DNA of 64,000 bases from Euglena gracilis. Taxonomy: Eukaryota. The stretch spans positions 47,967,847 to 48,031,846 of the forward strand of contig CP154954.1 in assembly GCA_039621445.1 (NCBI GenBank), read 5' to 3'. The translations under genes and the position numbers were made by a program. Below the pieces are notes generated by a model. The model did not search any database and was not told where the DNA came from. It saw nothing but the letters and a program-made list of their open reading frames with translations. Shown here one piece after another: positions 1 through 63,690 of the stretch. Each line of letters starts with the position of its first letter. Position 1 is the stretch's first letter.

Positions 1-63
1 GCCAATAAGTATCCCCAGTGGGTCTTTGCCGTTGCAGCCCATCCCCCCCCCCCCCGCGCACAC

Positions 64-216
64 CCGGAGGACACTTCAGACTCCGCGTCCACGAACCGCA
101 AGTGCTTGGCGGGCATGCCCCGAGCCAGAGGGCCCTTCGGCGTGCCGCAGGGGAGCCGGAATGTGGAGCCCCGCCGCTCCTCGATGAGGCTGCCGACGTC
201 CCCGAACAGCGGGCCG
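64..216 (-). CDS. Exon: end of CNB-B and C-terminal extension (LGPLFGDVGSLIEERRGSTFRLPCGTPKGPLARGMPAKHLRFVDAESEVSS)
   Basis: Continues FELLL-GP in frame, like PKA-R 'FE..LGP'; AG acceptor at 217-218 and GTGTG donor at 63. Confidence 0.75.
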
Positions 217-3200
217 CTGCCCCCTCATCGGGTTCGGCGCTGGCATGGCCATCGGGGTTTCATTGGCGTCCTCAATTCAGAAAAACGAAAACGCGACAAA
301 CATAAAATCGTAACAAGGAAATAGGCAGCTGGGGGGCAAAGAAGCAACTCTCGGATTTGTGGTGGTGATGAATGCATTGGCGTTGGGGGAACCCACCCAA
401 AAATGGAGAACAAAAAATGAAAAGTGCTGTCCGCAGAAAAAACAACAACACAAAAAAAACATCTGAGCCCTTTTTAGATGATACATATTCAGGTGTTATT
501 TTTTCTTTATTTGCTCCTGGCCGTTGCTCTTGTAGACATACTCTCGCCAAGCCCACCTGTGAGGATTCCTAAATGGCGGGGTAGAACGGAGCAGCAGTCA
601 TATCCTTCCTTTGCAGCACTACAGAGCGATAATATATATGATATATTTAGAGAGGTTAGGCCACTTTCAATGAATCGGTCTTTGGCGGATGGTGATTGAA
701 AAACAGGCTGTCGGAAAGAGAGAAAGAAAAATACAGCACTTGCAGCTGCGGATGGAGCAGATGAGCTTCTGCGAAAGAAATCTAATTCGCACCACTTGCA
801 TTTGTATTGTTGATATTATTTGACGACCACTTCTGCTGTGGCATCATTCGTTTGGCAAACGTCTTTGAGCGTTATTAATTCTGATGTTGTTTGTCGGAGA
901 AACATGACATAAATTCTGTGCAGCTTCGAAAGGCATTTGGAATGAGAGGGCAGCAGTAGTTCAAACGTCTTGCGGTCCAACTTGGCAACATGCATCTGTT
1001 GAGAGGGGCGGCGGTGGCAACGGTGCTTTTAATCTAAAAGCGTTGCGGCCATACCATTGCTCTGCGACCCCCGGGGGGGAGGGGAGGGTCACTTTCCACT
1101 CTGAAAAAACCAGTCAGTCACTTTACCCCCTGGGGGGGATCGGCCACTCTTGAATGATGAGGAGGAGGCAATGAAAATCTATCAAAAAGTCTCAAAAATC
1201 AAAAAAAAATCGGGCGCCTTCGGCGCCAGCCCAGCCACTTTTTCATTTTCGGGCCCACCCCCCCCGGGGGGGGGGTTCTTGGCCAGAAAACCAGTCAGTC
1301 ACTCTGAAAAACCAGTCAGTAACCCCCCCGGGGGTGGGGTGGGATAGGTGTTAAGCAATGGTATGGTTGTGGCACATGACCACGCCATTTCATGATGGTC
1401 GCATTCTTTGCTGCTGCCTGGTTTAAACTTTTGACTTTTGAGAACACCAATCAATCGAAATCGAAGCCAGGATTGGGCAATAATCTGCGATACCTGCCGA
1501 TGTGTGAGCCCCTCTGAGCAGCACTAAGGCTTCTTTTCTGTTTATGGCCTGCGCTAACTTCGCTTCTGGCCCAGTTTGCTGTGTAGTGAGTGGCCACGTA
1601 CCCCTTACACCAGTGCTCTTGTGTTGCTCCGCCTGGCCGGATGAGTAAGTCTGGTGTATTTCCAGTGTGTGTGAGCCCCCCCCCCCCCCGGAACAGTCAT
1701 CTGACAGGTTGGCGAATAACGGCGGCCTTGACAACTTTCCATCATACAGGTTGGCAGTTACTGGGGACCCTGACAATTTCCAGGGAGGTTCTCCTTTTGG
1801 CTTTTGGGAGGGGACAAAAATTTTGGGGTGCCCCCTACTGACTTTCATAATTTGGATATAATCAAATACCAATAATATATCAATTTATTTGTCAACCCCC
1901 GAAATTTTCCCGCAATGCGCAATTATTACCCAAATTGGATCATTTCTCATAAAAAACTGACAGGTTCAACCTTTCAAGCCAATTACATTCGACCTGACAG
2001 GCTTGGGGACACCAGGAACATGACAACTTCCAATCATAACTTGTTGGCTGGTTCCGGGGACCTTGAAATTTCCTGGGTGGAACCCTGACAGGCTCGTACG
2101 GTCATGCCAGTTTCAGGGGGCGGGGGGGACATTTATAATAGACCTCTCCATGCCTGGCACCAAAGATAATGCTTCTGCGTCAGGGTTCGATATAAGGACA
2201 GGTGGGGGGGGGGTGGTCCGGACCCCCCCCTGCGGGCCCGGAGGGGGGGGGGGGTGGGGGGGGGCACCCCCCCCCACCTAAACAGGTGCGCGGTCAGGGT
2301 GGCCGAATTTTCGGCCCGGCGCGAAGCGCCGGGCCGAAAATTTTTGACCCCCCAAAACGACCAAAAGTGCCATTTTGGGCACTTTTTGGGCAAAAATGTG
2401 CCAAAAATGCAAAAAATTTTCGGCGCGAAGCGCCGGAGGAAAAAATTGACCCTTTTTTGGGGGGGTCAATTTTTGCCCCCGAGGGTCGGTCCGGACCCCC
2501 CTGGCAGGTGGGGGGGGGGGGGGGGGTCCGGACCCCCCCCTGCGGGCCAGGAGGGGGGGGGGGGGGGGGGGGGACACCCCCCCCCACCTAAACCATGTAC
2601 GCCCTCCTTATATCGAACCCTGTTCTGCGTGTGGAGATGACAATTTCATGCAGACCAATTAAAGCCCTTTACAAGAGCACCTGCGTGGATTTTCTCATCG
2701 AGTTTTATTGATTGCATGAACGAACCCTGGAAAAACTTGTTAAAATACACCAAAGATGCACAGATGCCACAGCACTTTGTGGACACCCCCAATTCTTTTC
2801 AGCCTCACTGCTAATTTGAAACGATGGCAGATGTGTATCACCCTGTATCACCCTGCCATCATACGAATTCGTCACCTGTTGAGTCTGTGGCTTCGATTCA
2901 CTATTCCGAAATACGTACATATATGAGCATGATTTATACCTTGCACACATCTTTTGCAGGCATACTGGGGTGACAGCCTTGCAGTCATAGAGGGGTGATT
3001 GGCCTGTCAGAAATTCGTTCTCCCCGATCAGTGTCAGGCGCCCAAGTTTGCGGATCTGCCAGAGAAATGGGGTAGAATGGAACTTGGCCAAACACATAGT
3101 CCATTAGAGAAGGAAAAGGCGAGGCAAATCGCACGACATAACAGAGCGAGTCAAAACAGCGGCGCATAAAGATATGAATGTTGACAAATGGAAAAACCAC

Positions 3201-6200
3201 AGCATGAAACCATTCCCACCAATTTGGTGGAGCTGAATCGATGTTGGAATTAGAAATTATCCAAAAGTTTCGATATTTTCTCTAAATTTTGTATTGTTAA
3301 TAATCCGGTGACAAATCAAAACAGTTTACAGGAGAGAGCATAGAAAATACTGCAAAAAATATGCATTCGCACTGATACCAGAACTGACCCTATGACGTCT
3401 GACAGGGTGGGCACTGGCAAACCCAATTGCAACGCAACAGACAGAGCACACTGGAACGCTCGCATCCGCTTCATCCGTGTGCTTGCGGATTGTGGCAAAC
3501 CCTTGGAGGACCAGATAGGCAGCACAGCAAGGCTGTGAGAGTGGGGGAGGGTTGCGGTCGGGGCACGGTCCATAGGAGGAGGGTCTCCACCCTCCTCAAA
3601 AGTCGGTCGACACCCTCGTGCACTGTTGTTCGAGGTATACGGGTGCCCTGCATGTGCAACTCCCTTTTGTTGCCGATGCCCATTCGTACGCAACTGTTCA
3701 GAGGGCCCTAAAATAACGAAATCCCATGTGTTGCGTATGTCCTGTGTGTGATACCTGAATGCATGTGCGCAGGAGGAGGTTCGAGACCCTCCTCGAATGT
3801 CGTTTGAGTCCGTTTGAGGAGGGTCGAGACCCTCCGCAAATGTCGTTCAAAATCGTTCTAAGCCCCCACTTTGAGCTCAAACGTTCGAGCTTGAACCTTT
3901 TCCCCCCCGTGAGATTGGAGAGGCACAATCATGCGGCTGCATAGACCCCCTCTCACAAAAAACCCCCAGGTTATAATTTGGATGTCAGGGTCCATGGTGG
4001 TATTTAGGAGGGTCATTAGTTGGGCAAATCTTTCGAAATCTAAAATCAATCCTAACGCGCCTCGCAAGGCTTTAAAACTCCCTATGAGGCATTTTAGGGC
4101 TCATTGCGCAATGGACGCCTTATTTACATACTTCTTGAACCAATTTCATCCGTTTTGTGATTTTTGCAACATTTCTGCTGATTTTTCCTCTTTATTTTTT
4201 TCTTTCTTCACAGCTGTCGACCTTTCTTCGTTGGGTCCAAATTTGACCCCTAATTCTGTCACACAACTGTTTCTAGATGATACAAACACACACCACTGCC
4301 ACCTCCCCACAACTTCATAAATGCCAACCTTGACACCCTCCAGACCACGAGGTGCAACTTGTGATGGGCTAATTTTTTTTCAGTTTCGGGAAGAGGGTGT
4401 GTGATGGGGGTTCCATTATGGGGGGAGACCAATACATATTGTCTTTGGCCACGAATGCTAAACTTTCGCAACGCCCACTCAAGAATTCGAAAAATTTGTG
4501 AAGCGATGTATTTTTGATTTGGCAACTCAGGCATCAACAATGTGACAACCTCCCAGGGTGGGAAGGTGACAACCTCACGAGGGTGATATTGCCAGGCGTT
4601 GCTTAGCGACCGCCGCGGGGGGGGGGGGGTCCAGCTCAGAGGCTGGAAATTTTGAGACGGCTGAGAAAAAGGCCGCTGGCTGCCCCCACTCTTCCCCATA
4701 TCGGAGTCCGCCAGCTGGAACTGGGCCTGACCCCAGTCGAACCGGGTATAAAAAAAAATCGAAACGCCAAAAATACCCAAGAAGCTGCCAAATATGCAAA
4801 AAATCGATCTTTTGACCCCTTATTTGCCCTGGCCAGCCCAAATCCGACCCTTTTTCGCCCATTTTTCGCCCATTTTTGCGCACACAAAAGCCAAAAATCT
4901 GTCATTTTCCAGCCGCCCTTCCGGCGGCTGGAAAATAACTCGTCGATGAGATGGGGGGGAGGGGGGCCGGGCAGGGATGGATGGGAAGCCTTGAAGGGGG
5001 GGGGGTGGGTCGGACCCCCCCCCTCCCGACACGGAGGGGGGGGGGTCGGACCCCCCCCCTCCTACCTCGAAACTGAGGGGGGGCCGAAATTTTTTCGATT
5101 TCATGGACGGGCAAAGGGCCGGAAATTGGGTCGGAATCGGTCAAAAAACCCTGATTTTTCTTTTAAAATCGATCCAAAAATGCTCATTTTTTGAAATTTT
5201 TTGAAGTTTTTGGGGGAAAACACCAACACATCAAAAAATGGGCAATATGGCCAAAAGTCAGCAAAAGGGTGTTTTTTGCTCATTTTCCGGCGCTGCGCGC
5301 CGGAAGAAAATGATGTCAAGGAGGGGGGCCCCCCCCCCTTCTAGGGGGGGGGTGGTCCGGACCCCCCCCCCTCCGGACCCCCCCCTACCATTATCCCCTT
5401 ATTATCTCTACTGGTTGGTTGTTTAAGGCATCTGGTCACTTCAGCTAAATGTTGTCACTGTCATCCATGAGTGCTAGGAACCTGAAGGAGGTGGGCCCCC
5501 CCCCCCCCAACAGTGGTCCACTTCACCTTACAGGGGGGTCGGAACCCCCCCCCCTACCACCTACCTCAATACCGAAGGGCTTCCCATCCATCCCTGGGGC
5601 CGGGGTTGGAAAACGGCTGGAAAAAGTCTACTGGCTGGCTGGAGGCCCCCTTGGTTGTGCTAAGGCAGGAGGTCCCCCCCCCCGGGAGGGATGGGTCCAC
5701 TTCAGCCTAAACAACGCCTTGGCAGGCAGCAACACCTATCACTCAGACCAGTCATCCAGGAGGAAAACGTGTGTAATTGCCCCGAGAGCAGGTGACCGGC
5801 ACCTGCCCGGCCCGCAGCAGGTGATCCTCCGGCTGCAGTCGGACCCGGTCGGGGAGCAGGGCCCTGCGCCTGCCAGGCGGCACACAGCAGGAAAGGACAG
5901 GCCGGGGGCAGGTGGCATTTGTCGCAGCGAGGGGTCCTGGGGGAAGGCCTCCACGAGGTAGTGCAGCTCCTGCAACGACAGCACCTGTGAGGGGGGTTGT
6001 GTTTATCGCGTGGGGTGCCAACCTGGGCTGAAATAGGGGCACAATGGGACGGAACTGGTCTTAAAATCATTTCTTTGCTACCCGCCCCCCCCCCTGGGCA
6101 ATTGTCGCGCGACAAATTGGGCAGCACGGAGGGGGGTGACAATTGCCCGGGGGCGTCAATTGCCCTGGGGCGTCAATTGCCCACCCAGTAGGCCACATGA

Positions 6201-9200
6201 AAAACCAAATGACCAAAAACGCCATCTAAAACACAAATGAATGCGCAAAAATGCAGCTATGGTTGTGATATTGTGCAGAGCATTTGGTATGTGAAAGTTC
6301 TCAGCACGTTGTAGCAAAATAGAAGATCAATCGAGTCGTGTCAGCGAAAAGAAAGTTCACAGACATCTTTTGTGGGGGGGGGGACAAATTGGGCAGCACA
6401 GAGGGGGGTGACAATTTCCCGGGGTGACAAATTGGCCGGCACAGCCAATGGTGACAATTGCCCATAAACTTTTTTTTTAAACTTCAAGGAATCTGTGCGG
6501 AAATTTGTGCATAAATCGATTCTGAGACACGAGGTTTGATTTGAAAGGGTTCAAAATTTGTCTCTGACTTCGTTTACCAGGGGGGCAGTTGTCAGCCCTG
6601 TGCTGCCCCACTTTGTTGCCTCCCAAAATTACCCCTTTCCTTCTGCTGACCCGTTTGTTGGGCAACGGTTGCACTGCGCTTGGGGGAGGGCAGGTACGTT
6701 GCCTGTGGGGAACAGCTGGAAACCCCTTCCCCGCCTGCCGTCTCAGCTCAGGGACCCTCAGGGAGGTGGGGTTCGAGTTTGAGCAACGTATGCACACAAA
6801 ACGGCAGGGCGGAAGAACGCTGGCGGGCGCGGCGCACGTGGGCGAAGCTGGACTGCGCCAGGCAGCGCACGAACGTCTGGATGCGCTGCTTCCCGAGGAA
6901 CGCCAGCAGGCGGCGGTACACCTTGCGCTTCATCCCATACGTGCGCACCGCTGCGGGAGGAGGGCAATTTTTTTTTAAAAAAAGAAAAAAAGAAACGAAA
7001 TTGGAGGTGGGATTTGCAGGGCTGCCTGCAACCACAGTTTGCCAGAAAACGCGCAGGCGCAGCTGTGGACCCTTGCAGTTTGGGGGCTGCGTACTGTATC
7101 CCACCACTGCCAGTGTTGACCGTCAAAAGCGACCAGCACGAGGGCACACCAGTCTTGGCTTGGACGGTGGAGAGGGCGCTGGTGCAGTTCTTCATTGCGC
7201 GGCTTCCCAGCGTGTTGCCGGGTCCAGGCGGTGCACGTCTGCAGCCACGTGCATTCTTTTTTCCCTTGGCAGCTCGTGACGGTTTTTTTTTGACCCAGCC
7301 CAGCGGTCAAATGCCAAAATGGGGGGCAACCCATCTGTTCGGGAGGGGGGGTTGTTAACGGTGAAAGGAGGCCTTGCCACCCGGGAATTGTCAAACTGAT
7401 TCCGGTCGAATTGCCAGCGTCCCCAGCCCACCGTCGGGTGCGACTCCGGCCGCCGGCCACTCCGCCATTCCGGGGAAGCCGGCCACGGCACATCGCCTGG
7501 CCGGGGCCGAGCACCCGGACGAAGGTGCCGTTCACGTGGGACTCCGTGCCCGGCCCCGCCTTGCGACCCAGCCCCGAAAGGCAACACAGCCTCTGCCCCC
7601 CCACCCCCCCCGGCGAGGGGACGGCTCGGCTGGAAGGCAAGGCCGGCGCGCACTGCCCCTCCATGATGACGTAGAACCACGTGGTGGCGACCGGGGCCGC
7701 CCCTGCCGGGGGGGGGGGGGGGGGCTTGTGCTTCGGGGGGCCGGCCCATAACAGGTGCCCCCCCAAGGGGGTCGGTTTGGATGTGGGGTGGGATGCTTCG
7801 GCGTGCCCAGGCTTCTTTTCATGACCTCCAGGGACGCCCGAAGAGGAATCCCCAGGAAAGGCTCAACGGAGAGAACGCCATTAAAACAACCCTTCAAGCC
7901 CCCGTTCTTCATGATGGTCAAACTTGTCTTGCAAATTGCGGGTGTGTGCCGAGGTTTTTTTGCCTTGTGTGCCTCACAGGTCAAAACCTCAGCACTACAT
8001 CACCAGCAGTCAACAATTGGCAAAGAAAAATGAACGGGTCCGGCAACGTTTTTTCTTTGAGTGGCCTCAAAGTCCCTCAACGCTGATTCCTCTGCGTAAT
8101 TTACGTGACCGACAATGTTGTTGACATTTTTTTGTCGGAAATATCCAAAATATTGGAAATATTGGTAGTTTGACTCATGTCGGGGGTCGGATTTTTGACC
8201 AGCAATTCATCACCTATATCATCTCCCCCCCCCCCCGTCAACCCACCCCCTTCGGCCGACCAGCCAAACTGATCCTGCTTTGCCACCAGGGGTCGCAAGA
8301 TTCACAAGTGGATGGGGGGGAGTATGAACCCAGAGGCCCTATTTCCTGGGAGCCTCAGGAGTTGGCCTAAACCTCCAAAAACAGTAAAACAAAATCATAA
8401 ACATTTCTGGCGAAAATTCATCTGAAACGAATGAAAGGGCGTTTTTAAATTAAAAAAAAAGAAAAGGCGCTGGTAAATTATTGCCCTGGCGAAATTTGGT
8501 GCAAATTTTGCCAAGGAAATGCGTTTTCTCAACAATTTTGGAAGGGTCAAATTTGCAGGAACTGATACCCCCCCCCCCCGGAGACTGGGGTCAAGCATGC
8601 CTGAAAATTCAGCCTTGGTTCCAACCCAGCCAAATTTCCCTTTAAACAAAATTTTTTCTGCCACCCGGCAGGGGAGGGTCGAAAAGGTCTTGCTGCCTGA
8701 CCCTACCCCTTCCCTGCCTCGCGGTGGTGCGACACCTCTCAGAAAGGTAAGCTGGAACCCCCACGTATGGGAACCAGACTTCTTTTCACCAACCCCGGGG
8801 GGAGGGAGGTGCCTTGTGCCAGGGGTGCCTGCCCACAGTGGGCACCCCCCGGGGGTCGGTATTGGGTCCCGGTGCCCGCCGACGAAGCGAATATTCCGTC
8901 GAAAACGGCCATATTGCCTTCGGCGCCGGGGGGGGTGTGCCATAGCACCCAGCCCGAAGCTGGATTCCTCCAGGGGGGGGGGGTCGAAATGCCCTACCTC
9001 CCTGTCTGCTCCCAGCACCTGGAATCTGTCCACCGGCAAGTCGCCAAGAACCTGGGACCCTGGCAGTGGACCACAACGGCACCTCACACTGTTTGGGACA
9101 AATACGCACTCCGTTAACTTTCCCGGGTTGGGATCCCGTTTTTGAATTGCGGGTAACGTCCCACCCCTCCGTGTATGGAATGCCTCAAGTCAACTTTTTG

Positions 9201-12200
9201 AGAGGGAAGCCGACGGCAGCCACACCTTCCTCAAAGATCAGCGTCCCGGCCTCGAAGGTCACCTCCTGCAGGGCGTCGATCATTAGGTGCAGCTCCAGGC
9301 TGTCCATTTCGCTGAAGAGGTAATTGTCCCGAAGCGCCTGGGCCACAACGCAGAGCGGCGACGATAGGAGGCCGTGGGAAGCAGGGAGCAGGGCTGATGC
9401 CCGGGGAACGTTGGCAGTGCCTCACCACCGTGAGGAAGGACGCGGTGGGTCGGCCCGTTCCCGATGATTCGGAAAAAGGTGCGACAAAAACGGGCGATCA
9501 ACGCCGGAAAAAATGGTTCGGATAAACAGCAGTGAAAAAGAAAAAGTGCACCAATAATGTTAATATTTTTGATAATGATTTTGCATTTGATAAAGACACT
9601 GGTGCCTGCTCAGGGGATTTCACTCCGTTAAATGCCGAAGAAATGTTTCCTTCAGTCGGAATATCTCCAGCCGTGGCCGGCCACGGCTGGCCACAGATCC
9701 AGCCGCGGATGTTGAACCTGAACACTGAAAAGCACTGCGACAACAGTGAGTTCTCAAGAATGTGGCACTTGTGACTGCAATGGGTGTCCATATTCGTGGT
9801 AACTTGCAGCGCCCCAGCAACCCCAAAAAGCCGCCCAGCGCCTCGCTCAGGTCCCCACGTTTGTGAACCAGGTGCCGGTGGGCGGCTCTTTCGGTTAACT
9901 GAGGCCAATGCAACGACGTTGCCCGGCAATGGTTCAATTTTTGTTCATGCGGATTTAGCCGTAACCCTTCCTTCAAAAAATAAACTCATCAGAGCTTACA
10001 CGGTTCAGGGGTCTGAAACCACGGATGACGGCGATGAAACAATGGCCAGCTGACTGCGGCCGGCCGTGCCCGAAGGCGATCCAAACATTCCACCCAGTGA
10101 AAACAGATGACAAGGTGGTTGGGTCGCCAGCTGCCACCAACTCGGATGCAACATCCCACAGCCATCTCCCCAACCCAGGCACGCACTACACCCGCCTCCC
10201 TGGCAGTCTCGAAAAGCTTTAAACATTAAAGTAAACAATTCCAGAAGAATATCCAAAAAAAAAAGAGGCACCACCCCACTGAGAGCTCAGACAAAAAGAC
10301 CGGAATGATAACAATTTGGCTCATTCTGGGGAGAGAGTGAGGTCAATGGAGGAAATTTTCCCAGGAGAATTTTCGAACCACTTTGTTGGCTTCAGAGAAA
10401 AAATTTTGTCCTCTGTCCTCCCACTTCTGTCCTCCTTCCCTGCATATGATTTAGTACTGGTCCGTTCCCCTCTTTCAAAAAAAAAAGCAAGAGGAGAGAA
10501 AAAGATGGAATTTGTTACAGACAGACAATCCCCCTGGTAGACAATCAAACCCCCGGACCCCCGGCCGCCGGGAAGCGGGGGGGGGGGGGGGCATACGTGG
10601 ATGAGAGCGAAGGTGTCGTTGGCGGACTTGGGGAAGGCGGGCAGCTTGAGAGCGGGCGGGGGGCGGAGGCTGGCGATCTGCGCGATGACCTCCGTGCGGC
10701 GGGCGACAGGGCGCGGCTCGAAGGCGGTGGCAGCCTCCTCTTCGGAGTCGGTGGAGGCCTCCCCGTCCTGGGAGGCGGACCGAGACCATTCTGAACCGCC
10801 AAGGAGCGAGGGGCGCATAGTCTTTGCACTGGGCGGGTAGCCCCCAAACAGGTGTTTTCTTCGGACCCCCCAAAAGACGTCATTGGAGTTGAGGTTTTTT
10901 CGGTGAGGGAAAACGTTGAGAGAAGCACCGTCCCATGGAAAGAAAGAAAGAAAGAGTTCAACTCCAGAGCGTCCCTCAACCACCCCACTCAGAGGCGGCT
11001 GAAAAAGTTGGGCTGACACGAAAAAGGCCGCTGGCTGGCACTGGACGCCCCCGGGTTCAAATCCCGCCCGGCACCAAAGGGGCGGGGAGAGAGGGGACAC
11101 CCAGAGGCAGTCGCCCAGCCGGTACTGCGCCAGCCCCGCCGCGCTGTACGCCTCGTCCTCGACCGCCATGAAGGGGGCCGAGCCCCGGTCACTCATCGTG
11201 GGGGGCGGGCCAATGGCCGGGAGGGAGCCCGGGCCACGGGCTGGTACCTGCGGGGAGCCGGGGGTCACGGGTCGATGTAAGGGCAAGTGGGGGTAAACCC
11301 CCCCCAGTCCAGGAGGGGGCTATGCCCCCCCCACATACAGTGGCGAGGTCGGGGTGACCGATTTTTGGCTGAGCGCGAAGTGCGGGGCGGAAAACTTTGC
11401 CCCCCCCCCGCCCCAAAAATCGGCCAAAATGCCGTTTTTGTTTAGGCAAGTAACTGCAAAAAACCAAAACAAATTCGGTGGAAAGAAAAATATGTATGAC
11501 CTTTTTGGAGGAGGTCCTGGGTACCCCCAGGTGTCGGCCCAGACCTCCCTTTGGTTCTCTACCCTGGACACCATACTTGTGCCAAACTGTGGTAGGCACC
11601 CACTTCCCACATAGATTCACTTAGTGGGGGGAGGACATTTTTCCCAGGCCCCAAACCCACCCACCCACTTTTTTCAAAAAGCCACCCACACACAAACCCC
11701 CAGGGGGGGGGTCAGAGGGAGGGTTACGCTAGGAGGATGCTCCGTAGGAGGATGCTCATGAGCATCCTTGAGTGTCGCTCGAGGATGCTCATGAGCATCC
11801 TCGAGCGTCACTCGAGGATGCTCACGAGCCTGTCTCCAAATCGTTCTGGAGGGCAAATCCCTTCTGTTGCTCAACTGTTCGAGGGCCCCAAAAATAACAA
11901 AATCCCTTGTGTTTCCAAGTCGTTTTGGGGGGAAATCCCTTGTGTTTCCAAGTCGTTCTGAGGGGCAAATCCCTTCTGTTGCTCAACTGTTCGAGGGCCC
12001 CAAAAATAACAAAATCCCTTGTGTTTCCAAGTCGTTTTGGGGGGCAAATTCCTTGTGTTTCCAAATCGTTTTGGGGGGGACAAATCCCTTCTGTTGCTCA
12101 ACTGTTCGAGGGCCCCAAAATAACAAAATCCCTTGTGTTTCCAAGTCGTTTTGGGGGGAAATCCCTTGTGTTTCCAAGTCGTTCTGAGGGGCAAATCCCT

Positions 12201-15200
12201 TCTGTTGCTCAACTGTTCGAGGGCCCCAAAAATAACAAAATCCCTTGTGTTTCCAAGTCGTTTTGGGGGGAAATCCCTTGTGTTCCCAAGTCGTTCTGAG
12301 GGGCAAATCCCTTCTGTTGCTCAACTGTTCGAGGGCCCCAAAATAACAAAATCCCTTGTGTTTCCAAGTCGTTCTGAGGGGCAAACCCCTTGTGTTTCCA
12401 AGTCGTTTTGGGGGGCAAATCCCTTCAGTTGTCAACTGTTCGAGGGCCCAAAAATAACAAAATCCCTTGTGTTTCCAAGTCGTTTTGGGGGCAAATCCCT
12501 TGTGTTTCCAAGTCGTTCTGAGGGGCAAACCCCTTGTGTTTCCAAGTCGTTTTGGGGGGCAAATCCCTTCTGTTGCTCAACTGTTCGAGGGCCCAAAAAT
12601 AACAAAATCCCTTGTGTTTCCAAGTCGTTTTGGGGGCAAATCCCTTGTGTCTCCAAATCATTCTGGAGGGCAAATCCCTTCTGTTGCTCAACGGTTCGAG
12701 GGCCCAAAAATAACAAAATCCCTTGTGTTTCCAAGTCGTTTTGGGAGGCAAATCCCTTTTGTTTCCAAGTCGTTCTGAGGGGCAAACCCCTTGTGTTTCC
12801 AAGTCGTTCTGAGGGGCAAATCCCTTCTGTTGCTCAACGGTTCGAGGGCCCCAAAATAACAAAATCCCTTGTGTTTCCAAGTCGTTTTGGGGGCAAATCC
12901 CTTGTGTCTCCAAATCGTTCTGAGGGGCAAATCCCTTTTGTTATTCAACTGCTCGAGGGCCCCAAAATAACAAAACCCCTTGTGTTTCCAAGTCGTTTTG
13001 GGAGGCAAATCCCTTTTGTTTCCAAGCCGTTTTGGGGGCAAATCCCTTGTGTTTCCAAGTCGTTTTGGGGGGCAAATCCCTTCTGTTGCTCAACTGTTCG
13101 AGGGCCCCAAAATCCCTTGGGAAGACATGTGTTTCTTTTTGTGGTCCCGTGATACATGCAAGCATGACAGTAGGAGGATGCTCGAGATATCGCTCAAGGT
13201 CGCTCAAGGATGCTCATGAGCATCCTCGAGTGCCGCTCGAGGATGCTCATGAGCATCCTCGAGTGTTGTCGGAGGTCGTTCGAGGTCGCTCAAGGATGCT
13301 CATGAGCATCCTCGAGTGTCGCTCGAGGATGCTCATGAGCATCCTTGAGCGACGCTCGAGGATGCTCATGAGCATCCTTGAGCATGCTCAAGGAGCATCC
13401 TCGAGTGTGCTCAAGGATGCTCATGAGCATCCTCGAGCGACGCTCAAGGATGCTCGCTAAGCCCCCCCCCTCTCGAGGGGGGGGGCTTAAAAGCGCTCAA
13501 GGATGCTCAAGCTTGAGCGCTCGAGCTTGAGCATCCTCCTACCGTAACCCCCCCGGGGGTCAGACACCCACCCACGCACCCACCCAAAATCATGCCAAAA
13601 CCACCAAAAACACTGAAAAAATTATCCGGCTGGGCAAAAACCTGACCCATGACGCACCCGGGGGGTGAGGCGCACTCTTGAAAACGCACCCACCCCCCGC
13701 GGGGAGGGGTCGCACAGGTGTTAAGTGAATCTACGGTCTTGAAATAAGGCCTGGGTTTATTTTAATCGCTACTGACCGGGGGGTGGTCGCCATTTTGGCA
13801 AATATCGCTACTGACCGGGGGGGGGTCGTTAGACAAGACCGGGGTCAAAAAATTTTTCTCCTGCTTCACCTCAAGGCGAAAAAAAGTTTCCTTTGTCTGA
13901 CATGGCCACAACTCTCCGCTTCATGATGAAAAAAGGGAGAAACATGCAGCAATCAACAAGGCACCAACACATGGGAGAACTTGTTGACCAGGTTCAAAAT
14001 CAGCCATGAAAGTTATTTTAAAAAAAGGCTGGAGGTAAGGACGTGAATCACCTGGAAAAAGATCGCTACTGACCAGGGGAGTGGTCGTTGGACAAGGCCG
14101 GTCGTTGGACAATGCGGGGGGGGGGAGGTATGACTTATGACATTTGAAAATGATTTTTTGGGGTTTTATGCTTGTCTGTGCAGAGACAGCCGGTGGGATG
14201 GGGGGTCGGGAACCAGAGTAAATTTTAAGATATGACGCCAAATTTGCCCTGTACACTTTCTTCGAGACAGGTCAGTACACACAAAAACACTGGAACTTAT
14301 GAGAATAGGTTAGCCCTGATGTATGCAAAGGTGTGCTCAGAAGAATGTGCTTTTTTCCAAGGACTGCATATGATGTGTGTTATTTGCTGGTGCAATGCCC
14401 ATCAGGTTTTCATTTTTTTGCGGTTTGTGGCCCGGGGGGGGGGGGGGCTATCCTGGCCCCGATCCCCCAGGAGATGGGTGTTGGGCCGAAAGGAGGGACA
14501 TTTTTTCTCTGCAGCGCCAAAAACTGTATTCGCTGAAATGTGCCCGCCCTCTGGCGACGGTAATGTCCATTGCAAAGGCCTTCCCATGCCGCTCCGTCCA
14601 AATCCCCCTTCAGGGTCCATAAGACAGGAGATGAGGCAGGGGTCCAGAGCAAATGGAGCTGTGCACAGTGGAGATGGGAGGGGAGGGCGATTGTTGTGGG
14701 GCTGGCTTTATGTTGTAGTGTTCTACGCAAAGAGAGCCGGGGGGGGGGGGTGCGAATCTGGGGGCTGTAAACTGTGGTCAGTCAGGGGAACGCACAGAAG
14801 GTCAGCTGGAAGGGATGGAGGGCCCGGTCACAGGGGGTAGAAATGCCCCGCTCCACCGACGTCGCGAACCACCACATTGGGTGGGGGCCACTCCACCCAA
14901 TGCCAGCACTTCCCATGCTGCGCCTGCCAATTTTCCCGACGCCGCGGTTGCTTGGCACATCGTGGTAGGGATCCGATTTTCCCGGATTTGTGCGCAACCG
15001 TGTCTTTCCCACCATCACCCCCCCCAAACCCAATGAACACCAAGGTGACAATCTAGACGGTCCGAACACCCCCTGTCATTGGGCAGGGGCGTTCATTGGG
15101 CATGGGGGGGGGTACCATCACCCCCATCGCCAGGAGGGGCCCGGCGGGGTTGATCTGGCGGATGATGCTCCACAGGGTGTGGGTGCCGAGGGCGATGTCG

Positions 15201-16177
15201 AACGTCTCATCGCTGGTGGGCAGCGACCCGCCGTCCCAGCACAGGTCCAGCTGCTGCAGCGTCGGCCCGGGCCGGCCCCAGGCTGGCCAGGGGGCGATGA
15301 GGGGGGAATCCTCCTTAAAGCGCCGGGCCAAACCTTTTTACCCCAAAAATGACCCAAAACCGCCATGGGCACTTTCTGGGCAACGTTTTGTCAGACTGCC
15401 CAAAATATCGGCACAAAGTGACGGAAAACTGAATCTTTGAGGCAGTCCCCCCCCCCGGCCGGCCACCACCCAGCGGGGGGGAGGGAGGCCTTGCGAAAGG
15501 GGCTTCAGACGGTCGAAACCACCCCACCCTCCTTCCTGCCCAACCCTCTGGGGGGATGCAAGGTCCTTGTGGCCGAGTTGTGCAGAAAGTGGTCTTTTCC
15601 AAAGTGCATCCAACAGGAATGTTGTTCTGCGTTTGTGGGGCAATGAGTCCAGCACTGTGCGCGGGACATTGAAGAACAAAAGCCTGCCCAGCCTCTTCCC
15701 CACGACCACGTGGTCTGCTGTTCGTTAACACCTCGCCAAACCGTTCGTTTGGCGGTTCCTTTCCTCAGAAAGAAGCCCATTTCCCACTCAAACCCGAGGC
15801 AAAAGATTCGCCGCAGCCCCAGCCCCGGGGGCCGGCCCAGCGGGAGAGAGCCCACGATGTTGAGGAGCTCGGAGGTGGTGCTGAGGATGGGCCCGATGAC
15901 GAGGTGCTTGATGTGCGTGGCCTCCAGCGCCACCGCCTGGCACACCGCGGAGTCTGCGTCCTTCAGCCCCCGCCAGGCGGTGGCGAGGCGGCACCGCAGC
16001 CACACACAAAAGGCGGCCCAAACCCGATCCAAGTTGCTCAAAGGGCCTTCCCAAGAATTACTGGGGGTGGGGGGGGGGGTGGCGTCCCTGCTGGTCTGAG
16101 TACGCAGCCACACCAACTAGCAGTCACATGGAACATGATGACTCATGTGGACATGAACACAACGCATCCCACACACA

Positions 16178-16223
<46 letters not shown>

Positions 16224-17647: not shown

Positions 17648-20600
17648 AAGGGAGATACAGACAGACAGAGAGAGAAAGAAGACACACATGGGCGCGCATG
17701 CACACTGTGGTTGGGCAGGTCGCTGGGCAGGGAGGGGAAAGGATACTGCAGCAGGAGGAATGGTTCTTGTAGGCTGCGGTAGCTGTCCCAGTGCTCCTCC
17801 CAGCCCACACTCTCGATGCTGATGCTTTCCAGCGACGGTGCCGGAAGGCCAACTCGGTAGCTTTTGATGGTGACATGAGCAGCATGAGCAATGTGAGCAT
17901 GCTGGACATATGAAAATAACATCAGATCCACTCGAATCCACTGGACCCATTTTTGAAAATATTTTTTGCTTGCATCACATTGAATCGACGGAAAAAGGTT
18001 TGAAGACAACCTTACGTAGGGCTGTTCGGGAAGGTCTGGGGGTCTGGACCCACTCCACCAAGGCAATTCACAACGGAAATTCCTTTGGTTCCGACCAGGG
18101 GCTTTTTTAAGAGTGGGGGGGGGGGGGGGGGCCCCCCCTCCCACCCACCAGGGTCCCCTAAAAATGGCCAAAAATCGCGAAAAATGCTAAGAAATAGCAC
18201 CTTTCTCAAAAATTTTCGGTGCCAAAAAGTATATCCCACCCCCCCCTACCCCCCTGGGGGGACCCCCCCCCGGGGGGTGGGGGGGCTCGGCTGGACCCAT
18301 CCACACTACCCCCCTCCCCCCGGAGGTCCAAGGCTTAAAAAAAAAAACCCTGGTTCCAACATACAAAAAAAGCTGTCGTATTCAGCAGTAATTGGCACAG
18401 ACAGGAAAAAAATGACAGTGACTTGCTGAGGGGGAAAAAAGCGAAGGCACCAAGGACACACATGCTTCCCCCACCCCAGGGGAGGGGGAAGTTGGCCCCA
18501 ATAAATTCGAAAATAAATTTTCGTGAATCCGTAAGTCCGTAAATTTTCCACTTTTGGGGGATCAGTCCCTTCCCCTGAGAGGTTGGCCTCGGGCCTGTCC
18601 TCGCCAACCCAGCCTGACAGGGGGTTGGCCTGCCCCTCTGTACTCGCCAACTTGGCTGAAGCCAACTTCCACCCCTTCCCCGGGTGGGGGGGGGGGGTAC
18701 AGAGAGCCTTCACACCCCAGAGACAGCCTCCCGGGCGGCAGGCGGGTCAGGAGCACGTCCAGCGCCGCGTCAGGCAGGCGGGGCTCGGAGTGCTGGAGGA
18801 ACGCAGCAGTGTACGGCCGCAGCCGCAGGCACTGCAGCCGGGGGACGCTGTGGGCGATCCGCTCGCAGTCCGCCCGGGAGAAGGCGCACGGCGCGGAGAT
18901 CTCCAGCCGCTCCAGCTGGGCCCATGGCCGGGGGTGGCCGCAGACCGTATAAAATGCGCCATTCCACACCCAGGTCCACCAGTGTGGACAACGATGTGGA
19001 AGGGTGCGGTGATAATATAGTTTGTGATACATATGATAATAATTCATGATACGCGTCTCTCTCTGTGTGTAATAAAATGCTATGTGCACACACACACATA
19101 GTATATTGTGATTGTAGTATATAGTATATTACACATAGTATATTGTATATTGTTATTAACATATAATATATATTAAATTGTAACACCATATATGGTATGT
19201 AGAGCGTGGTATAATGCATACAGACAAACACTCTGTGGATATGCACAAATGCGCATACAGATCCTCTGCAGGAAGGTGTGTTCTGTTAAGCTTGGCTTTT
19301 ATGAAGTTTTTGTATTTGCATCCGCTGTGCTTTGCATGTGAGAAGAAGAAGTTTGCCTCCTCATCGACCTCACCCCAGAATTGATGGTCCACAGACAGGC
19401 CATGTTTGGGGTGACTGGTGGATGATGTGCAATATGTCGCGGAACAGAGGGAGGCGCTCCGATCTTTGGCAAACATCGGCAAAACCAAGCAGGTCTGCTG
19501 ACATTATCTTGAGCAGTTTTATAGGGCCCAAACCAGGGGTCACCGGCACTGCCACGGGAGGGAAAAGCAGCCGGCATCCTCCTGGACACAACACTCCCCA
19601 ACACACCCCCGGGACAGCACGCCGGAGCAGACAGGGGAGCCTCGGCGGGAGCACCACACCGGAGGGGATGGCGTGGGGATGCTCGGAGACGCACAGCTCC
19701 CGCAGCTGCGGGAAGGCGCAGCATGCGAACCGCGACCGCGCGGCGGGGGCGACGCAGCCGACGTTTTCGATGTGAAGCACCCGGAGGGCGGGGGCGTCCC
19801 GGCCCTGTCTCTCCAAGGTCCATGGCCCGAGGACCCCCACACAAATATGGGATTATGAGGAGGGGGCAGGTGACCTCTTAACTGAAATGGACTTCGGGCG
19901 TTCGATGGCGCCAGGATGCTTCAGTCGCTCATCTCCCGGCAGAAAGGGAGCGTCTAGGGAGGGCAGCTGAGAAACTTGAGTTGAAATCTGTGGCATGCAA
20001 AAGGGTTGGTCAGGAATGCTCACCGCTCATCGGCATGGAAACCAGCAGGTGGAAGGCTGTTCGATTGGTGACACATCACAAGGAGGACAGTGTGGGGGGG
20101 GACACCTGAGGTTGGCCCCCAGGCGACTCCAGTTCCCTTCTCACGTCGCGGAAATGGGAGGGGGGGGCGAGGGTCGGGGCGGGCGGCGTGCGAGAGGGGC
20201 GGCAGCGCCTCCGGCTTGGCGGGCACCGGCGGCCGCGTGAAGCGCACGCCGCCGAGGCGCAGCTCCGCCAGGCGGGGGCAGCCCGCCAGGAGGGGGCCGA
20301 GCAGCGCGGCGTCCAGCGGCACCTCGCAGCCCCCGCCGCTCGGCGCCGGGTCCGGCCGGTCCGTCTTCCACAGCCGCTCGGGGGCGGGGCGTCCCGTGGT
20401 CCGCCGTCCTCCGATGACACGCAGGAGGGCAGGGGGGGGGGCTGATCGCACCCGACACATCAAATCTGAAGCAGCAGCAAACAGAGGGGTCTCTAAAGGC
20501 CCCGTACAACCCCGTTAACCGTGGTTTTTGATGAGGCGGCCTTTCGCATAAACGACGCATAAACGACACAAACTCTCCCCAGGAGTAAACTAGCAGGGGG

Positions 20601-23135
20601 GGAAAGACTGTTTGGGGGTTGGTGGTGGAGAGTGCCAAGGGGGAACGTGCTTTTGGGGGGGTCTGTTTTTGGACTCTGGAAATTTGCAGCCAAAAAAAGT
20701 TGGCAGCATTCTTCCCTATCATTTGAAAAAAGGCCATTTTTGACCATGTAAAACATGTATAAAAAAAGCAAAAAAAAAACGATCACGTTTGGGGCAAATA
20801 CAAATCTAGGGCGTCAATTTTCCCCAAAAAAAATCCCAATGGGGATTTAAATAACTTCAGCAATTTTGATTTGATTTGGGACACCACAGCCCATTTGGAC
20901 GAACGAAGACGCCAAACGTCAGCCAGGTGCTGTGGAGGAGAGCCCCGGGCGAGGTGCTGGCAGTACTTCACCACCTCACGAAGGACGCTGTAGTGCAGGG
21001 ACCCCGTGAACTCGATGACCCGCAGGCCGGGGGACTTCAACAGCAGCAGCCCCAGCACGCCGGCCTGCTTCTCCTCCCAGCGGTCCCCGGCGATGGACCC
21101 CGCCAGCGGTGGGCGGAGCGAGCACGGGGGAAGTGGCGGGTCCGCACACGTGTCAAACGGTGGGCGAATGCGGGGGTGGGCGGCAAATGCGCACACCCCG
21201 ACTCATCCCCAGGACTGGCTTCATTTGGCTGGGGCACCAACCCCCACCCTCGTTAAACTGCGACCAGACAGGCCGGCAAGTGGCTCCGACACTTTCCTGG
21301 GCGGGGGGACCCCCCGTTCGCCAGGGACGCCGGATTCCCCGAGAATGGGGGTGCCCTGGAATGGAGTGCGGGGTGGAGGTCGACACTGCCAGACTGCCAG
21401 CCGGGGGGTGGCCTGGCCCCCCCGCTGGCCAGCTTCGTCACCGCCATCACCTGCTGGGCGAGGCCAACGAGGAACACCATCGTGCGGGGCGTGGGCGACC
21501 GGAACCGCAGGTCGGCGGGAGGTGGGCCCCGTTTGGGCTCCGGGGGCCATCCCTACCTCCCCCTCCCCCATCCAGAACACTGACTCCTGACAGCAGATAC
21601 TGCGTTCCTCGCCCCATTGCCCCGTACCGCGTGTGTTGTCGATTGTCATGGAAGGTCGTTGGGTTTTTTGACTTTGGCTGGCCGTCCCTGACAGCTCCCC
21701 GGGCATGCCCCAGGGGAGGGGTTTTTGGTTTTGTGGCCAAACCTGGGAAACTGTCCGCGCCGTCCGACCTGCCACGGTTTCCAAAAACCATTCACTCACC
21801 TTTTCCGGAAAACCAGCCAGTCTCAACCCCCCGGAGGTGCACACTCTGGAATCCAAGGGAAAATTGACGACAGGTTTAAAGAAACTGTCCGAGAAAAAAT
21901 TCCAAAGGCGGGCCACTTTGGTGGTTTATCCAACCCCTGCACCCACAGGGCGGGGGTGGGTTGCCATTTGGGGATTGCTTATATTTGGGTGTTGGGCAAA
22001 AATTGGCCAGAAGGCTGCCTGCATTTGTGGATAGCTTGTTTACTTATATATGACTTATATATGCGGGGGGGGGGGTGTTGCACACCAATTTGGCCTGTTC
22101 CCCCTTAATGTTGGCACGCCATATGCCACTCCAAACAACCAGTGAGTTACCCCCTCCCCCCCCCGGGGGGAGGTCAGCCAGAGACTAAGTGATTGGCTTA
22201 GTGTTACGGTCGAGGTGTGGGGGGCGCCTCGGCAAGGGCAGCGGTGCAGTGGAGGAGGCGGTGCGTCGCTCGGTGCCACTCGGAGGACAGGAGGCACAGC
22301 ACCTGCACAAAGGGCAGCCCCAAGTACCTGAACCATGGATTCACTGAAGGAGCTCCATGGGGGGAGGGCAATTCCCCCTGGGCCAAAACCTACCCACCCA
22401 CTTGTGTGAAACACACCCACGACGACCCCCCCCCACGCCACCCATCCAGAAACCCACCCAGAATTAGCTGAACCCCTCAAAAAACTGGAGATCCATTGCG
22501 AACCCCCCCGGGGTCCAACACCTCCAACCCACCCACCCACCTGCCCGCCCACCCACTTTCGAAAAACCCCCAGGGGAGGGGCCACACCCGCAGTCAGTGA
22601 ATCCATAACCCGAACACCAGCTCCAGCAAGAAGTCTGGCGGAACAGGCCGCGGCACGGGGGAAAGGTTTCCGAGAAAGGGTGGGCGAGCACAAAGGCCCA
22701 CATGTGACTGCAGGTGTCATGAGCATGGTGGGGCAGGGGATGGGCAACCCAGATGACCGGAACAAAGGGGAAGAATGAAGTGTCTCTCAAAGGGACCCCC
22801 AGAGTTTTGCAAGGCACGGTTTTTGCCGGGGCAGCCCCATGCGTGAAAAACAAAAAAAACCGTAATATTTTCTGAACATTATTGGGGGGCATTTGGACTT
22901 GCCAAGGGTGCAATCCTTTAGAGTTTTAGGTGGAAAGCAAGACCTTGCACAACACAACACAGCCTTGAGGACTATCCTGTGTTCTCCCCCCAAACACACA
23001 CACACACACAATCCCTTTGAAGGCAGCCACCAAGGACAGAGGCCGGGGCAGAGGCTGGGGCCCGGGCGGGGGGTCGAGGCTGCAGCGGGGCGAAGCGGTG
23101 GCCTCGCGCCGCGCCGCCTTGCGATGCGGCTTCAT
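64..23135 (-). CDS. Multi-exon gene: F-box + LRR-like region + PKA regulatory-subunit-like module (inhibitor motif and two CNB-homology domains); 3' end probably runs off the window start
   Basis: Minus-strand exons join in frame into F-box-like VPPDFLLELVFGYLGLPFVQVLCLLSSEWHR, LRR-like segments (LRVIEF, LAELRLGG, LRELCVS, LERLEIS, LRRLELY, LQQLDL) and RRTEV...FPKSANDTFALIH-ALRDNYLF...CNB-A...CNB-B. The candidate ATG at 23135 follows a pyrimidine tract and an AG at 23197-23198. The link across 11250-15100 is not resolved. Confidence 0.65.
217..951 (-). other. Intermediate intron (GC-AG with terminal stem)
   Basis: The 5' end GCCCTCTCAT pairs with the 3' end ATGAGGGGGC(AG), with +1 opposite -3; removal restores the frame. 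Confidence 0.75.
952..995 (-). CDS. Exon: CNB-B final strand and hinge (MHVAKLDRKTFELLL)
   Basis: Follows a ctctcaacag acceptor in phase 0; matches the PKA-R 'AKLDR..FE.LLGP' pattern. Confidence 0.8.
1050..1365. mobile_element. hAT-like MITE
   Basis: 12-bp TIR CATACCATTGCT/AGCAATGGTATG; flanks GTTGCGGC (1042-1049) and GTTGTGGC (1366-1373) form an 8-bp TSD with 1 mismatch. Confidence 0.75.
2181..2622. mobile_element. hAT-like MITE, copy 1 of a family also present at 35062
   Basis: 18-bp TIR CAGGGTTCGATATAAGGA/TCCTTATATCGAACCCTG; perfect 8-bp TSD TTCTGCGT (2173-2180, 2623-2630). Confidence 0.92.
2966..3055 (-). CDS. Exon: CNB-B ligand cassette (IRKLGRLTLIGENEFLTGQSPLYDCKAVTP)
   Basis: tctctggcag acceptor, GTATGC donor, 90 nt, phase 0; GExEFL...D motif at the phosphate-binding-cassette position. 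Confidence 0.85.
3452..3490 (-). CDS. Exon: CNB-B loop (IRKHTDEADASVP)
   Basis: Preceded by the nonconventional 3' end TTGCCACA and followed by a GTGTGC donor; in frame with its neighbours. Confidence 0.55.
3491..4301 (-). other. Nonconventional intron
   Basis: 5' TGGCAG pairs with 3' TTGCCA(CA); CAG at +4; joins VVGR to IRKHTD in frame. Confidence 0.55.
4302..4325 (-). CDS. Small exon in CNB-B (GIYEVVGR; 5' boundary uncertain)
   Basis: Aligns with the 'G.V.VVGR' segment expected after the FYII/LYII strand. Confidence 0.45.
4592..5721. mobile_element. Degenerate TIR element containing a nested MITE
   Basis: Ends CCAGGCGTTGCTTAG and CTAAACAACGCCTTG(G) are imperfect inverted repeats; no clear TSD. 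Confidence 0.4.
4972..5596. mobile_element. hAT-like MITE (nested)
   Basis: TIR CAGGGATGGATGGGAAGCC/GGCTTCCCATCCATCCCTG; perfect 8-bp TSD GGGCCGGG (4964-4971, 5597-5604). Confidence 0.88.
5751..5984 (-). CDS. Three micro-exons forming the start of CNB-B (VLSLQELHYLVEAF / DRVRLQPEDHLLRA / GAITHVFLLD)
   Basis: The pieces lie in different frames and are reconciled by stem-forming introns 5851-5942 and 5784-5808; the product aligns with PKA-R 'L...E...IADAL....F..GE.II.QG....FYII'. Confidence 0.65.
5851..5942 (-). other. Nonconventional intron (92 nt)
   Basis: CCCCAGGACCCCT...AGGGCCCTGCTCCCC; no GT/AG; removal gives EAFDRVRLQ in frame (position can slide within the C runs). Confidence 0.65.
6838..6950 (-). 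CDS. Exon: CNB-A end and A-B linker (AVRTYGMKRKVYRRLLAFLGKQRIQTFVRCLAQSSFAH)
   Basis: cccgcag acceptor in phase 1, GTGCGC donor; resembles PKA-R 'LWAIDR.TYRRIL....KR..Y..FL'. Confidence 0.82.
7150..7219 (-). CDS. Exon: CNB-A ligand cassette, degenerate (GNTLGSRAMKNCTSALSTVQAKT)
   Basis: Same length as the canonical 'G.SFGELALLYNTPRAATV.AKT'; GTGTG donor at 7149. Confidence 0.78.
7220..7502 (-). other. Nonconventional intron with TSD-like direct repeat
   Basis: 5' GGCCAGGCGATGTGC pairs with 3' GCACCGCCTGGACCC; CAG at +4, CTG at -8; joins VLGP to GNTLG in frame. Confidence 0.8.
7503..7702 (-). CDS. Two exons of CNB-A (GAAPVATTWFYVIMEGQ / ESHVNGTFVRVLGP) separated by a ~100-nt stem-forming intron with an ambiguous junction
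   Basis: cggcag acceptor in phase 1 at 7703; FYVIMEG and VNG..V..LGP are CNB hallmarks. Confidence 0.75.
9226..9337 (-). CDS. Exon: CNB-A start (ALRDNYLFSEMDSLELHLMIDALQEVTFEAGTLIFEEG)
   Basis: cccag acceptor, GTGTGG donor; typical N-x-LF..L....L..IIDAM....F.AG..I..EG. Confidence 0.9.
10597..10767 (-). CDS. Exon: acidic linker, inhibitor motif RRTEV and FPKS segment of a PKA-R-like protein
   Basis: 171 nt, cccag acceptor, GTATGC donor; RRxxV followed by PKS about 20 residues later, immediately before CNB-A, as in PKA-R. Confidence 0.8.
11101..11246 (-). CDS. Exon(s) upstream of the linker (...MAVEDEAYSAAGLAQYRLGDCLW)
   Basis: GC3-rich coding-like sequence, cccgcag acceptor near 11247, GT donor at 11100; it may contain a further small intron. 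Confidence 0.5.
11830..13120. repeat. Higher-order minisatellite
   Basis: ~32-bp CAAATCCCTTGTGTTTCCAAGTCGTTTTGGGGG units interleaved with ~45-bp AAATCCCTTCTGTTGCTCAACTGTTCGAGGGCCCCAAAATAAC units; period ~112-115 bp. Confidence 0.9.
13175..13540. repeat. Array of 22-bp palindromes GAGGATGCTCATGAGCATCCTC (also at 11733-11830)
   Basis: Repeated perfect or near-perfect palindromes with short, related linkers. Confidence 0.85.
15135..21510 (-). CDS. About a dozen LRR-region exons of the F-box/LRR protein (approx. 21400-21510, 20950-21110, 20190-20390, 19870-19990, 19650-19800, 19250-19530, 18720-18925, 17760-17910, 17190-17390, 16830-16990, 15840-15990, 15135-15270)
   Basis: GC-rich coding islands such as SPGLRVIEFTGSLHYSVLREVVKYCQHL, LLAGCPRLAELRLGG, AFPQLRELCVS, WAQLERLEISAPCAFSRADCERIAHSVPRLQCLRL and LLGTCFGLRRLELY fit the FBXL-type 'L..CP.L..L.L' pattern. 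Boundaries are approximate. Confidence 0.65.
16170..16400. repeat. (CA)n followed by (CACAC)n microsatellite
   Basis: Directly visible; explains the spurious THTH/TTPHH ORFs. Confidence 0.95.
17570..17645. repeat. (CA)n(GA)n microsatellite
   Basis: Directly visible. Confidence 0.95.
18096..18352. mobile_element. hAT-like MITE
   Basis: Ends CAGGGGCTTTTTTAAG / CTTAAAAA...CCCTG; flanks GTTCCGAC and GTTCCAAC form an 8-bp TSD with 1 mismatch. Confidence 0.78.
22208..22645 (-). CDS. F-box motif split over two exons (VPPDFLLELVFG / YLGLPFVQVLCLLSSEWHRATHRLL)
   Basis: GT-AG intron 22328-22609 in phase 2; the product matches the F-box pattern LP.ELL..IF.YL......L..VC..W. Confidence 0.72.

Positions 23136-24542: not shown

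Positions 24543-63690
<39,148 letters not shown>

Follow-up and report, generated by a model that had tools for sequence, protein, structure and literature searches.

Where do the nonconventional introns of euglenids come from? This question, which has stood since the 1990s, is raised in a concrete form by a stretch of 64,000 nucleotides from Euglena gracilis (assembly GCA_039621445.1, contig CP154954.1, positions 47,967,847 to 48,031,846 of the forward strand; 'the window' below). The window contains four MITEs (miniature transposable elements with inverted repeats), here called E1 to E4, and a partial gene in which one nonconventional intron, at positions 7217-7499, has the build of a MITE. 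Our analysis suggests that MITEs that begin with CAG, end with CTG and are flanked by target-site duplications (TSDs) of 8 bp probably become nonconventional introns when they land in exons. In particular, the intron at 7217-7499 appears to have begun as a transposon insertion, and families of the E1-E4 type appear to be a source of such introns.

An initial annotation of the window, made from the letters alone, had called four MITEs with CAG...CTG ends and 8-bp TSDs. All four were recovered at the same positions, three of them with flanks identical at 8/8 and the other (E3) at 7/8:

2173 to 2630, no strand assigned: MITE E1 with its TSDs; body 2181-2622, 442 bp; from sequence and from RNA of the host intron.
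4964 to 5604, no strand assigned: MITE E2 with its TSDs; body 4972-5596, 625 bp; from sequence and from RNA of the host intron.
18088 to 18360, no strand assigned: MITE E3 with its flanks; body 18096-18352, 257 bp; from sequence.
35054 to 35482, no strand assigned: MITE E4 with its TSDs; body 35062-35474, 413 bp; from sequence.

E1 lies between two copies of one 8-mer (TTCTGCGT/TTCTGCGT, 8/8, with no ninth repeated base) and has perfect terminal inverted repeats (TIRs) of 18 bp, CAGGGTTCGATATAAGGA. E2 is flanked by GGGCCGGG/GGGCCGGG (8/8) and has perfect TIRs of 19 bp, CAGGGATGGATGGGAAGCC, while E4, between CTTGGGGG/CTTGGGGG (8/8), has TIRs that agree at 11/12 positions. The 8-mers around E3 are GTTCCGAC/GTTCCAAC, and its TIR is imperfect (CAGGGGCTTTTTTAAG versus CAGGGTTTTTTTTTTTAAG; 10/12 over the outermost 12 nt). 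All four elements start with CAGGG and end with CCCTG. Close to each end of E1 stands a module of about 83 nt, made up of a G-run, TCCGGA and a C-run and repeated in direct orientation; this subterminal module is common to E2 and E1/E4 at 77-82% identity, and 12 of its 13 matches in the window fall within E1, E2 or E4. E1 and E4 are 88-90% identical (88% over 448 aligned columns) and represent one family. When the two are aligned together with 30 nt of flank, the likeness runs from CAG to CTG exactly and the flanks are unrelated. Since the likeness stops at these borders, and since each copy has its own duplicated 8-mer, the duplication was made at the target. E1 to E4 are non-autonomous cut-and-paste DNA transposons (MITEs) with 8-bp TSDs, and judged by their sequences they fall into at least three families: E1/E4, E2 and E3.

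These features are not expected by chance. The window was scanned for the pattern N8-CAG...CTG-N8 with a TSD of at least 7/8, a TIR of at least 9/12 and a length of 40-3000 bp, and block-wise Markov shuffles served as the null. The scan returned 11 rows, corresponding to five distinct elements and one palindrome cluster, against a mean of 1.08 rows (maximum 3) in 40 shuffles; with an exact 8/8 TSD and a TIR of at least 10/12, four rows remained, compared with none in 60 shuffles. Within the window, the E1 TIR (4 occurrences, 0.01 expected) and the E2 TIR (2 occurrences, 0.03 expected) are found at MITE ends only. TSDs and TIRs are therefore far above chance. The rows at 33402-33702 were set aside as a false positive; they derive from a cluster of repeated palindromes at 33360-33730 (GGTTGGACCGCGGCC...GGCCGCGGTCCAACC) that mimics CAG...CTG elements in the scan. 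Also set aside were eight loci from a metagenome scan with the 18-nt E1 TIR, in each of which 18-20 nt only were matched, as in chance matches.

Several weaker candidates were seen beside the four MITEs. A mini element of 72 nt at 30805-30892, CAGAGGTTTTTTAAGG...CCTTAAATATCTG, has flanks ATATGAGC/ATGTGAAC (6/8) and a 5' end that resembles that of E3, and may be a deletion derivative. A CAG...CTG pair at 1739-2863 has an exact 8/8 flank, CCATCATA, and weak ends (7/12), a combination for which chance alone would yield about 1.4 rows; if the pair is real, E1 would be nested within it. Other rows that combine 8/8 flanks with weak ends lie at 20279-21299, 30338-31977 and 36998-37762.

The link between these elements and introns is provided by the published cut rule. 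Knock-in tests define nonconventional introns as N3-CDG...CH'G-N5-6|R (Nomura et al. 2025, PMC12501133; this paper, like PMC4770533, PMC11282704 and PMC8101967, is represented throughout by part of its text). The 5' spacer is strictly 3 nt, the 3' spacer is best at 5 with 6 tolerated, and the next exon base is preferably a purine (PMC12501133). In the mechanism that we propose, a transposase with an 8-bp staggered target cut would give abcdefgh-CAG...CTG-abcdefgh; nonconventional splicing would then recognize the stem closed by CAG:CTG and cut at two points, one 3 nt ahead of CAG and the other 5 nt (in some cases 6) past CTG. These cuts would join abcde to fgh, which is the original sequence, while one copy of the TSD leaves with the element. 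Because 3 + 5 equals the length of the TSD, splicing out an exonic element would also take away one copy of the TSD and bring back the reading frame, so that the element could persist as a nonconventional intron. And because CAG...CTG reads identically on both strands, the scheme would work in either orientation.

The initial annotation had put forward the same arithmetic, and it is correct: the element plus 3 plus 5 equals the element plus one 8-bp TSD, whichever way the element points. The further statement that this restores the mRNA at any site and in either orientation holds as arithmetic and is otherwise too strong, since a purine is needed at position 6 of the TSD according to the available text of PMC12501133; the full published signature is present in one orientation only for E1 and E2, and in both for E3 and E4. 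Similarly, the asymmetry of the intron consensus, for which the TSD had been offered as an explanation, is covered in part: the length of the TSD explains why the offsets add up to 8, but not why they are divided into 3 and 5. Junctions of nonconventional introns have the consensus pyrimidine|purine at both ends (PMC4770533), and such a shared consensus would follow if both copies of the TSD were cut at their e|f step. Excising E3 or E4 in silico with one TSD copy joins minus-strand frames of 301 and 278 codons. We rejected this result as evidence because 18-21% of random excisions (4-8% when the shorter arm is considered) do equally well and because the frames look non-coding, being rich in S/L/P/R or in G/A/R/P and in one case lacking Met.

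Direct evidence comes from RNA. Reads and contigs were mapped to positions 1-16200 of the window, using the raw RNA-seq runs X21 and X22, which have the same species label, and the contig sets X15 and X17, which are presumed to be RNA. Among the 15 joints listed out of 174, four, located around E1 and at 7708-7724, are artefacts of repeats or G-runs, and 11 define a gene:

63 to 11248, minus strand: host gene, partial; 12 exon pieces, seven GT-AG introns and four nonconventional introns, from RNA joints.
996-2965, 3056-3451, 3533-5802, 5981-6833, 7702-9224, 9337-10595 and 10767-11099, minus strand: GT-AG introns of the host gene.
7217 to 7507, minus strand: nonconventional intron with MITE anatomy, including its flanks; body 7225-7499, 275 bp; RNA-verified.
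5851 to 5942, minus strand: nonconventional intron of 92 nt, from RNA; N3-CAG...CTG-N6 followed by G; flanks alike at 3/8.
7544 to 7648, minus strand: nonconventional intron of 105 nt, from RNA; flanks alike at 2/8.
211 to 957, minus strand: nonconventional intron of 747 nt, from RNA; unique register; flanks alike at 4/8.

The joined exon pieces form an open frame of 352 codons. The strand of the gene was taken from this frame and from the seven GT-AG introns, because the libraries look unstranded. A Pfam search of the gene gave no family, a homologue search with the 127-aa exon 6836-7216 found none, and an Rfam search returned no match.

Of particular interest is the intron at 7217-7499, which interrupts the 352-codon frame. 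In transcript sense it reads GCCCCGGC-CAGGCGATGTGC...GTGCACCGCCTG-GACCCGGC, and the flanking 8-mers at 7217-7224 and 7500-7507, GCCCCGGC/GACCCGGC, agree at 7/8. The joint 7216>7500 is supported by 28 reads of X21, 12 reads of X22 and one contig each in X15 and X17, and it skips 283 nt, that is, the CAG...CTG body of 275 bp plus 8. The joint can slide by 6, which gives seven equivalent registers; N3-CAG...CTG-N5 is among them, and the next exon base is G. The ends of the intron are complementary at 10/12 positions, and the minimum-free-energy and centroid folds alike contain the terminal stem, with an energy of the whole molecule no better than that of shuffles (z +1.22). The MITE scan also picks out this intron, where about one chance row per window is expected. 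In euglenid nonconventional introns, positions +4..+6 (CAG) are paired with -8..-6 (CTG), inverted repeats join the ends, junction direct repeats are frequent and a purine follows (PMC12501133, PMC3935182, PMC4770533; Milanowski et al. 2014/2016), and all of this is seen at 7217-7499. Under the mechanism set out above, the intron would be a case of a MITE spliced with one TSD copy, the TSD now having one mismatch.

The other three nonconventional introns differ in their details. At 7544-7648, a stem CCGGCC/GGCCGG starts from +4/-6 in one of two equivalent registers, and the triplet CCG/CGG is outside the published CDG rule. The intron at 211-957, placed after the stop of the 352-codon frame, has complementary GCT/AGC at +4..+6/-8..-6, also outside the letter rule, and the next exon starts with G. 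The claim that introns in this DNA have their cuts 3 nt ahead of CAG and 5 nt past CTG is thus right in part: the joint at 7217-7499 allows this register, and the claim does not extend to these two introns, nor to 5851-5942 with its 3' spacer of six.

E1 and E2 lie in the same gene, E1 inside the GT-AG intron 996-2965 and E2 inside the GT-AG intron 3533-5802. RNA depth at 2161-2700, as at 7561-8100, is 20-80 times that of the neighbouring sequence and comes from partially fitting reads that enter G-runs. A reading of the 65-83x depth over E1 as expression was rejected, since most reads fit partly and run into G-runs. Eight X15 contigs have a joint at 2264>2507, which connects the two direct modules within E1; the cause may be shorter members of the family at other loci, or artefacts of the G-runs. 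Two X17 contigs follow E2 to 5596 and then diverge, which suggests that there are further copies of E2 elsewhere.

Several observations weigh against the proposed origin. The intron at 7217-7499 has no sequence relative among E1-E4 or elsewhere in the window, and the intron at 5851-5942 removes the body plus 9 rather than plus 8, within the published N5-6 tolerance. A comparison of the 8-nt flanks, which the initial annotation had proposed as a check, gives a clear TSD in one of the four local nonconventional introns (7/8 at 7217-7499) and 4/8, 3/8 and 2/8 in the others, and the sample is one gene with four such introns. In addition, the AG|GT consensus is enough to bring one GT-AG intron to 6/8 at the corresponding offsets, so flank identity by itself is a weak measure. 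Unlike known euglenid nonconventional introns, E1 and E2 interrupt no exon. Their position within GT-AG introns means that their splicing at -3/+5 is not demonstrated; no -3/+5 joint around E1 or E2 is among the 15 of 174 joints listed, and, with an intronic depth of about 0.3-2 and this fraction of joints, the absence is uninformative rather than negative. Finally, no transposase and no Pfam family above the cut-off were found in 287 open reading frame translations from the window (275 of at least 90 aa outside a tandem array described below, and 12 more); an autonomous hAT transposase with matching TIRs, for which the initial annotation had proposed a search, did not appear among these translations. 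Taken together, the earlier interpretation is partly supported: that MITEs of this build generate introns is favoured by the geometry and by one RNA example, and is held back by the location of E1 and E2 and by the sample of one gene.

The superfamily assignment can be considered separately. MITEs of the hAT superfamily, such as Ds-like elements, have an 8-bp TSD, short TIRs that start with CAG.G and no coding capacity; the hAT terminal consensus is YARNG and the target consensus nTnnnnAn. E1 to E4 are like hAT MITEs in their 8-bp TSDs, in their CAGGG...CCCTG ends, which fit the terminal consensus, and in lacking coding capacity, and unlike them in the G-run/TCCGGA/C-run subterminal modules, which are peculiar to the elements described here. 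The transposase may have been hAT-like, a label that reflects TSD length and termini only. The fit to the target consensus is poor, with T at position 2 in three of five TSDs and A at position 7 in one of five, in what is a small sample. When the literature was searched for the end motif of maize Ac, the only matches were to unrelated primers. The main alternative keeps the model and changes the superfamily, replacing hAT with Merlin (IS1595-like) or another transposase that makes 8-bp TSDs. In its favour, besides the target consensus and the lack of any hAT transposase among the window translations, Euglena gracilis is described as having two families of Merlin elements, which make 8-bp TSDs and have conserved DDE motifs (PMC8101967). 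According to the same source, however, Merlin TIRs all begin with 5'-GG, as against CAGGG here, and in E1-E4 the CA/TG is part of the inverted repeat and differs from the flanks, so that the elements do not start with GG. We consider a change of superfamily of this kind unlikely, and put the choice of 'hAT-like' over Merlin as the better label close to an even call.

A second alternative is coincidence: the MITEs could be ordinary transposons unlinked to nonconventional introns, which would have a different origin, such as the repair of double-strand breaks that has been suggested for the gapC intron. Precedent for a repair origin comes from an intron newly gained in one strain of E. agilis, which has eight-nucleotide direct repeats at its junctions, longer than those of the other introns analysed (PMC4770533). 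In the available text of that paper, the authors interpret the repeat as a repair scar; an 8-nt repeat at a fresh intron also agrees with the mechanism proposed here. The location of E1 and E2 in GT-AG introns, the lack of sequence similarity between the verified intron and the MITEs, and the retention of a TSD in just one of four introns would all agree with coincidence. On the other hand, the CAG/CTG termini, the inverted ends and flanks whose 8 nt match the two cut offsets added together are three independent features that occur jointly, repair scars are not expected to have a fixed 8 nt abutting CAG and CTG, and the verified intron was found by a scan tuned to MITEs. Coincidence is, in our judgement, distinctly improbable. 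The reverse direction, in which the copies are excised introns (RNA circles or linear forms) brought back into genomic DNA through reverse splicing or reverse transcription, could draw on the full-length circles reported for excised introns (PMC11282704) and on the complete splicing signature of the elements, yet it would bring 3 + 5 nt from the donor, whereas E1 and E4 differ in their 8-mers, each duplicated on both sides as expected of a staggered target cut, and E1 and E2 sit in non-coding intron DNA; we regard it as very improbable indeed.

A MITE origin, as proposed here for the intron at 7217-7499, has precedents in general terms. The initial annotation had noted as much, and the proposal is indeed in print (PMC3935182, PMC6221363, PMC12501133). 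According to the authors of the 2014 proposal, euglenid genomes had at that time yielded no identified transposable element (PMC3935182), a review of 2024 calls CAG/CTG a TIR and the junction repeats TSD-like (PMC11282704), and the origin was still termed unclear in 2025 (PMC12501133). In contrast to the present analysis, the published proposals name no MITE family or superfamily and do not link the sum of the spacers to an 8-bp TSD, as far as the cited texts go. The literature search, with supplements and subscription papers outside its range, found no statement that the TSD is 8 = 3 + 5, none of hAT, and no actual euglenid MITE families with these ends.

That splicing can remove a transposon plus one TSD length is a principle known from introners (PMC11282704). 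In the introners of Micromonas and Aureococcus and the MITE-derived introns of Fritillaria and Amoebophrya, a transposon with TIRs and TSDs inserts into an exon, and, as proposed here, splicing removes the element plus one TSD length and restores the mRNA (PMC11282704). Those systems use the spliceosome, their splice sites come from the element or from the TSD, and their TSDs are 3-5 nt long (PMC11282704), whereas here an RNA stem would fix the cuts at distances of 3 and 5 nt, the machinery is probably non-spliceosomal and the TSD measures 8 bp.

Other features of the window were noted in passing. Tandem repeats at 11831-13456, with periods of 34, 112 and 257 bp and then an 86-bp palindromic repeat, lie directly upstream of the last exon piece seen in the host gene. 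A second expressed stretch lies at 14600-15100, where 176 reads of X22 continue from 15019 into sequence beyond the mapped stretch; the splice partner of 15019 probably lies outside 1-16200. Strong A>G differences are seen in RNA reads at 15028 and 15032. At 40500-56000, units of about 1155 bp that are 97-100% alike are repeated 13-14 times in tandem, with a G+C fraction of about 0.70, a strongly C-rich plus strand and all three plus-strand frames open; Pfam gave nothing above the cut-off in this array. One unit has about 800 extra bp near 48.1-48.55 kb, which are C-rich and without MITE ends.

Thus, the window supplies pieces that the MITE hypothesis had been missing: actual MITE families that have suitable ends, a TSD as long as the two cut offsets combined and an RNA-verified intron of the same build. 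The old question of a MITE origin is now directly testable. A broader proposal, that most nonconventional introns of euglenids stem from CAG...CTG MITEs and that this source is active to this day, with offsets matched to the 8-bp stagger and exonic insertions silent at the level of RNA, seems to us just as likely to be wrong as right. If it is true, it would explain the share of about 70% nonconventional introns in Euglena, the fact that most of them are 'slidable' and the single pyrimidine|purine consensus at both junctions, and euglenids would provide a non-spliceosomal counterpart to introner-type intron gain.

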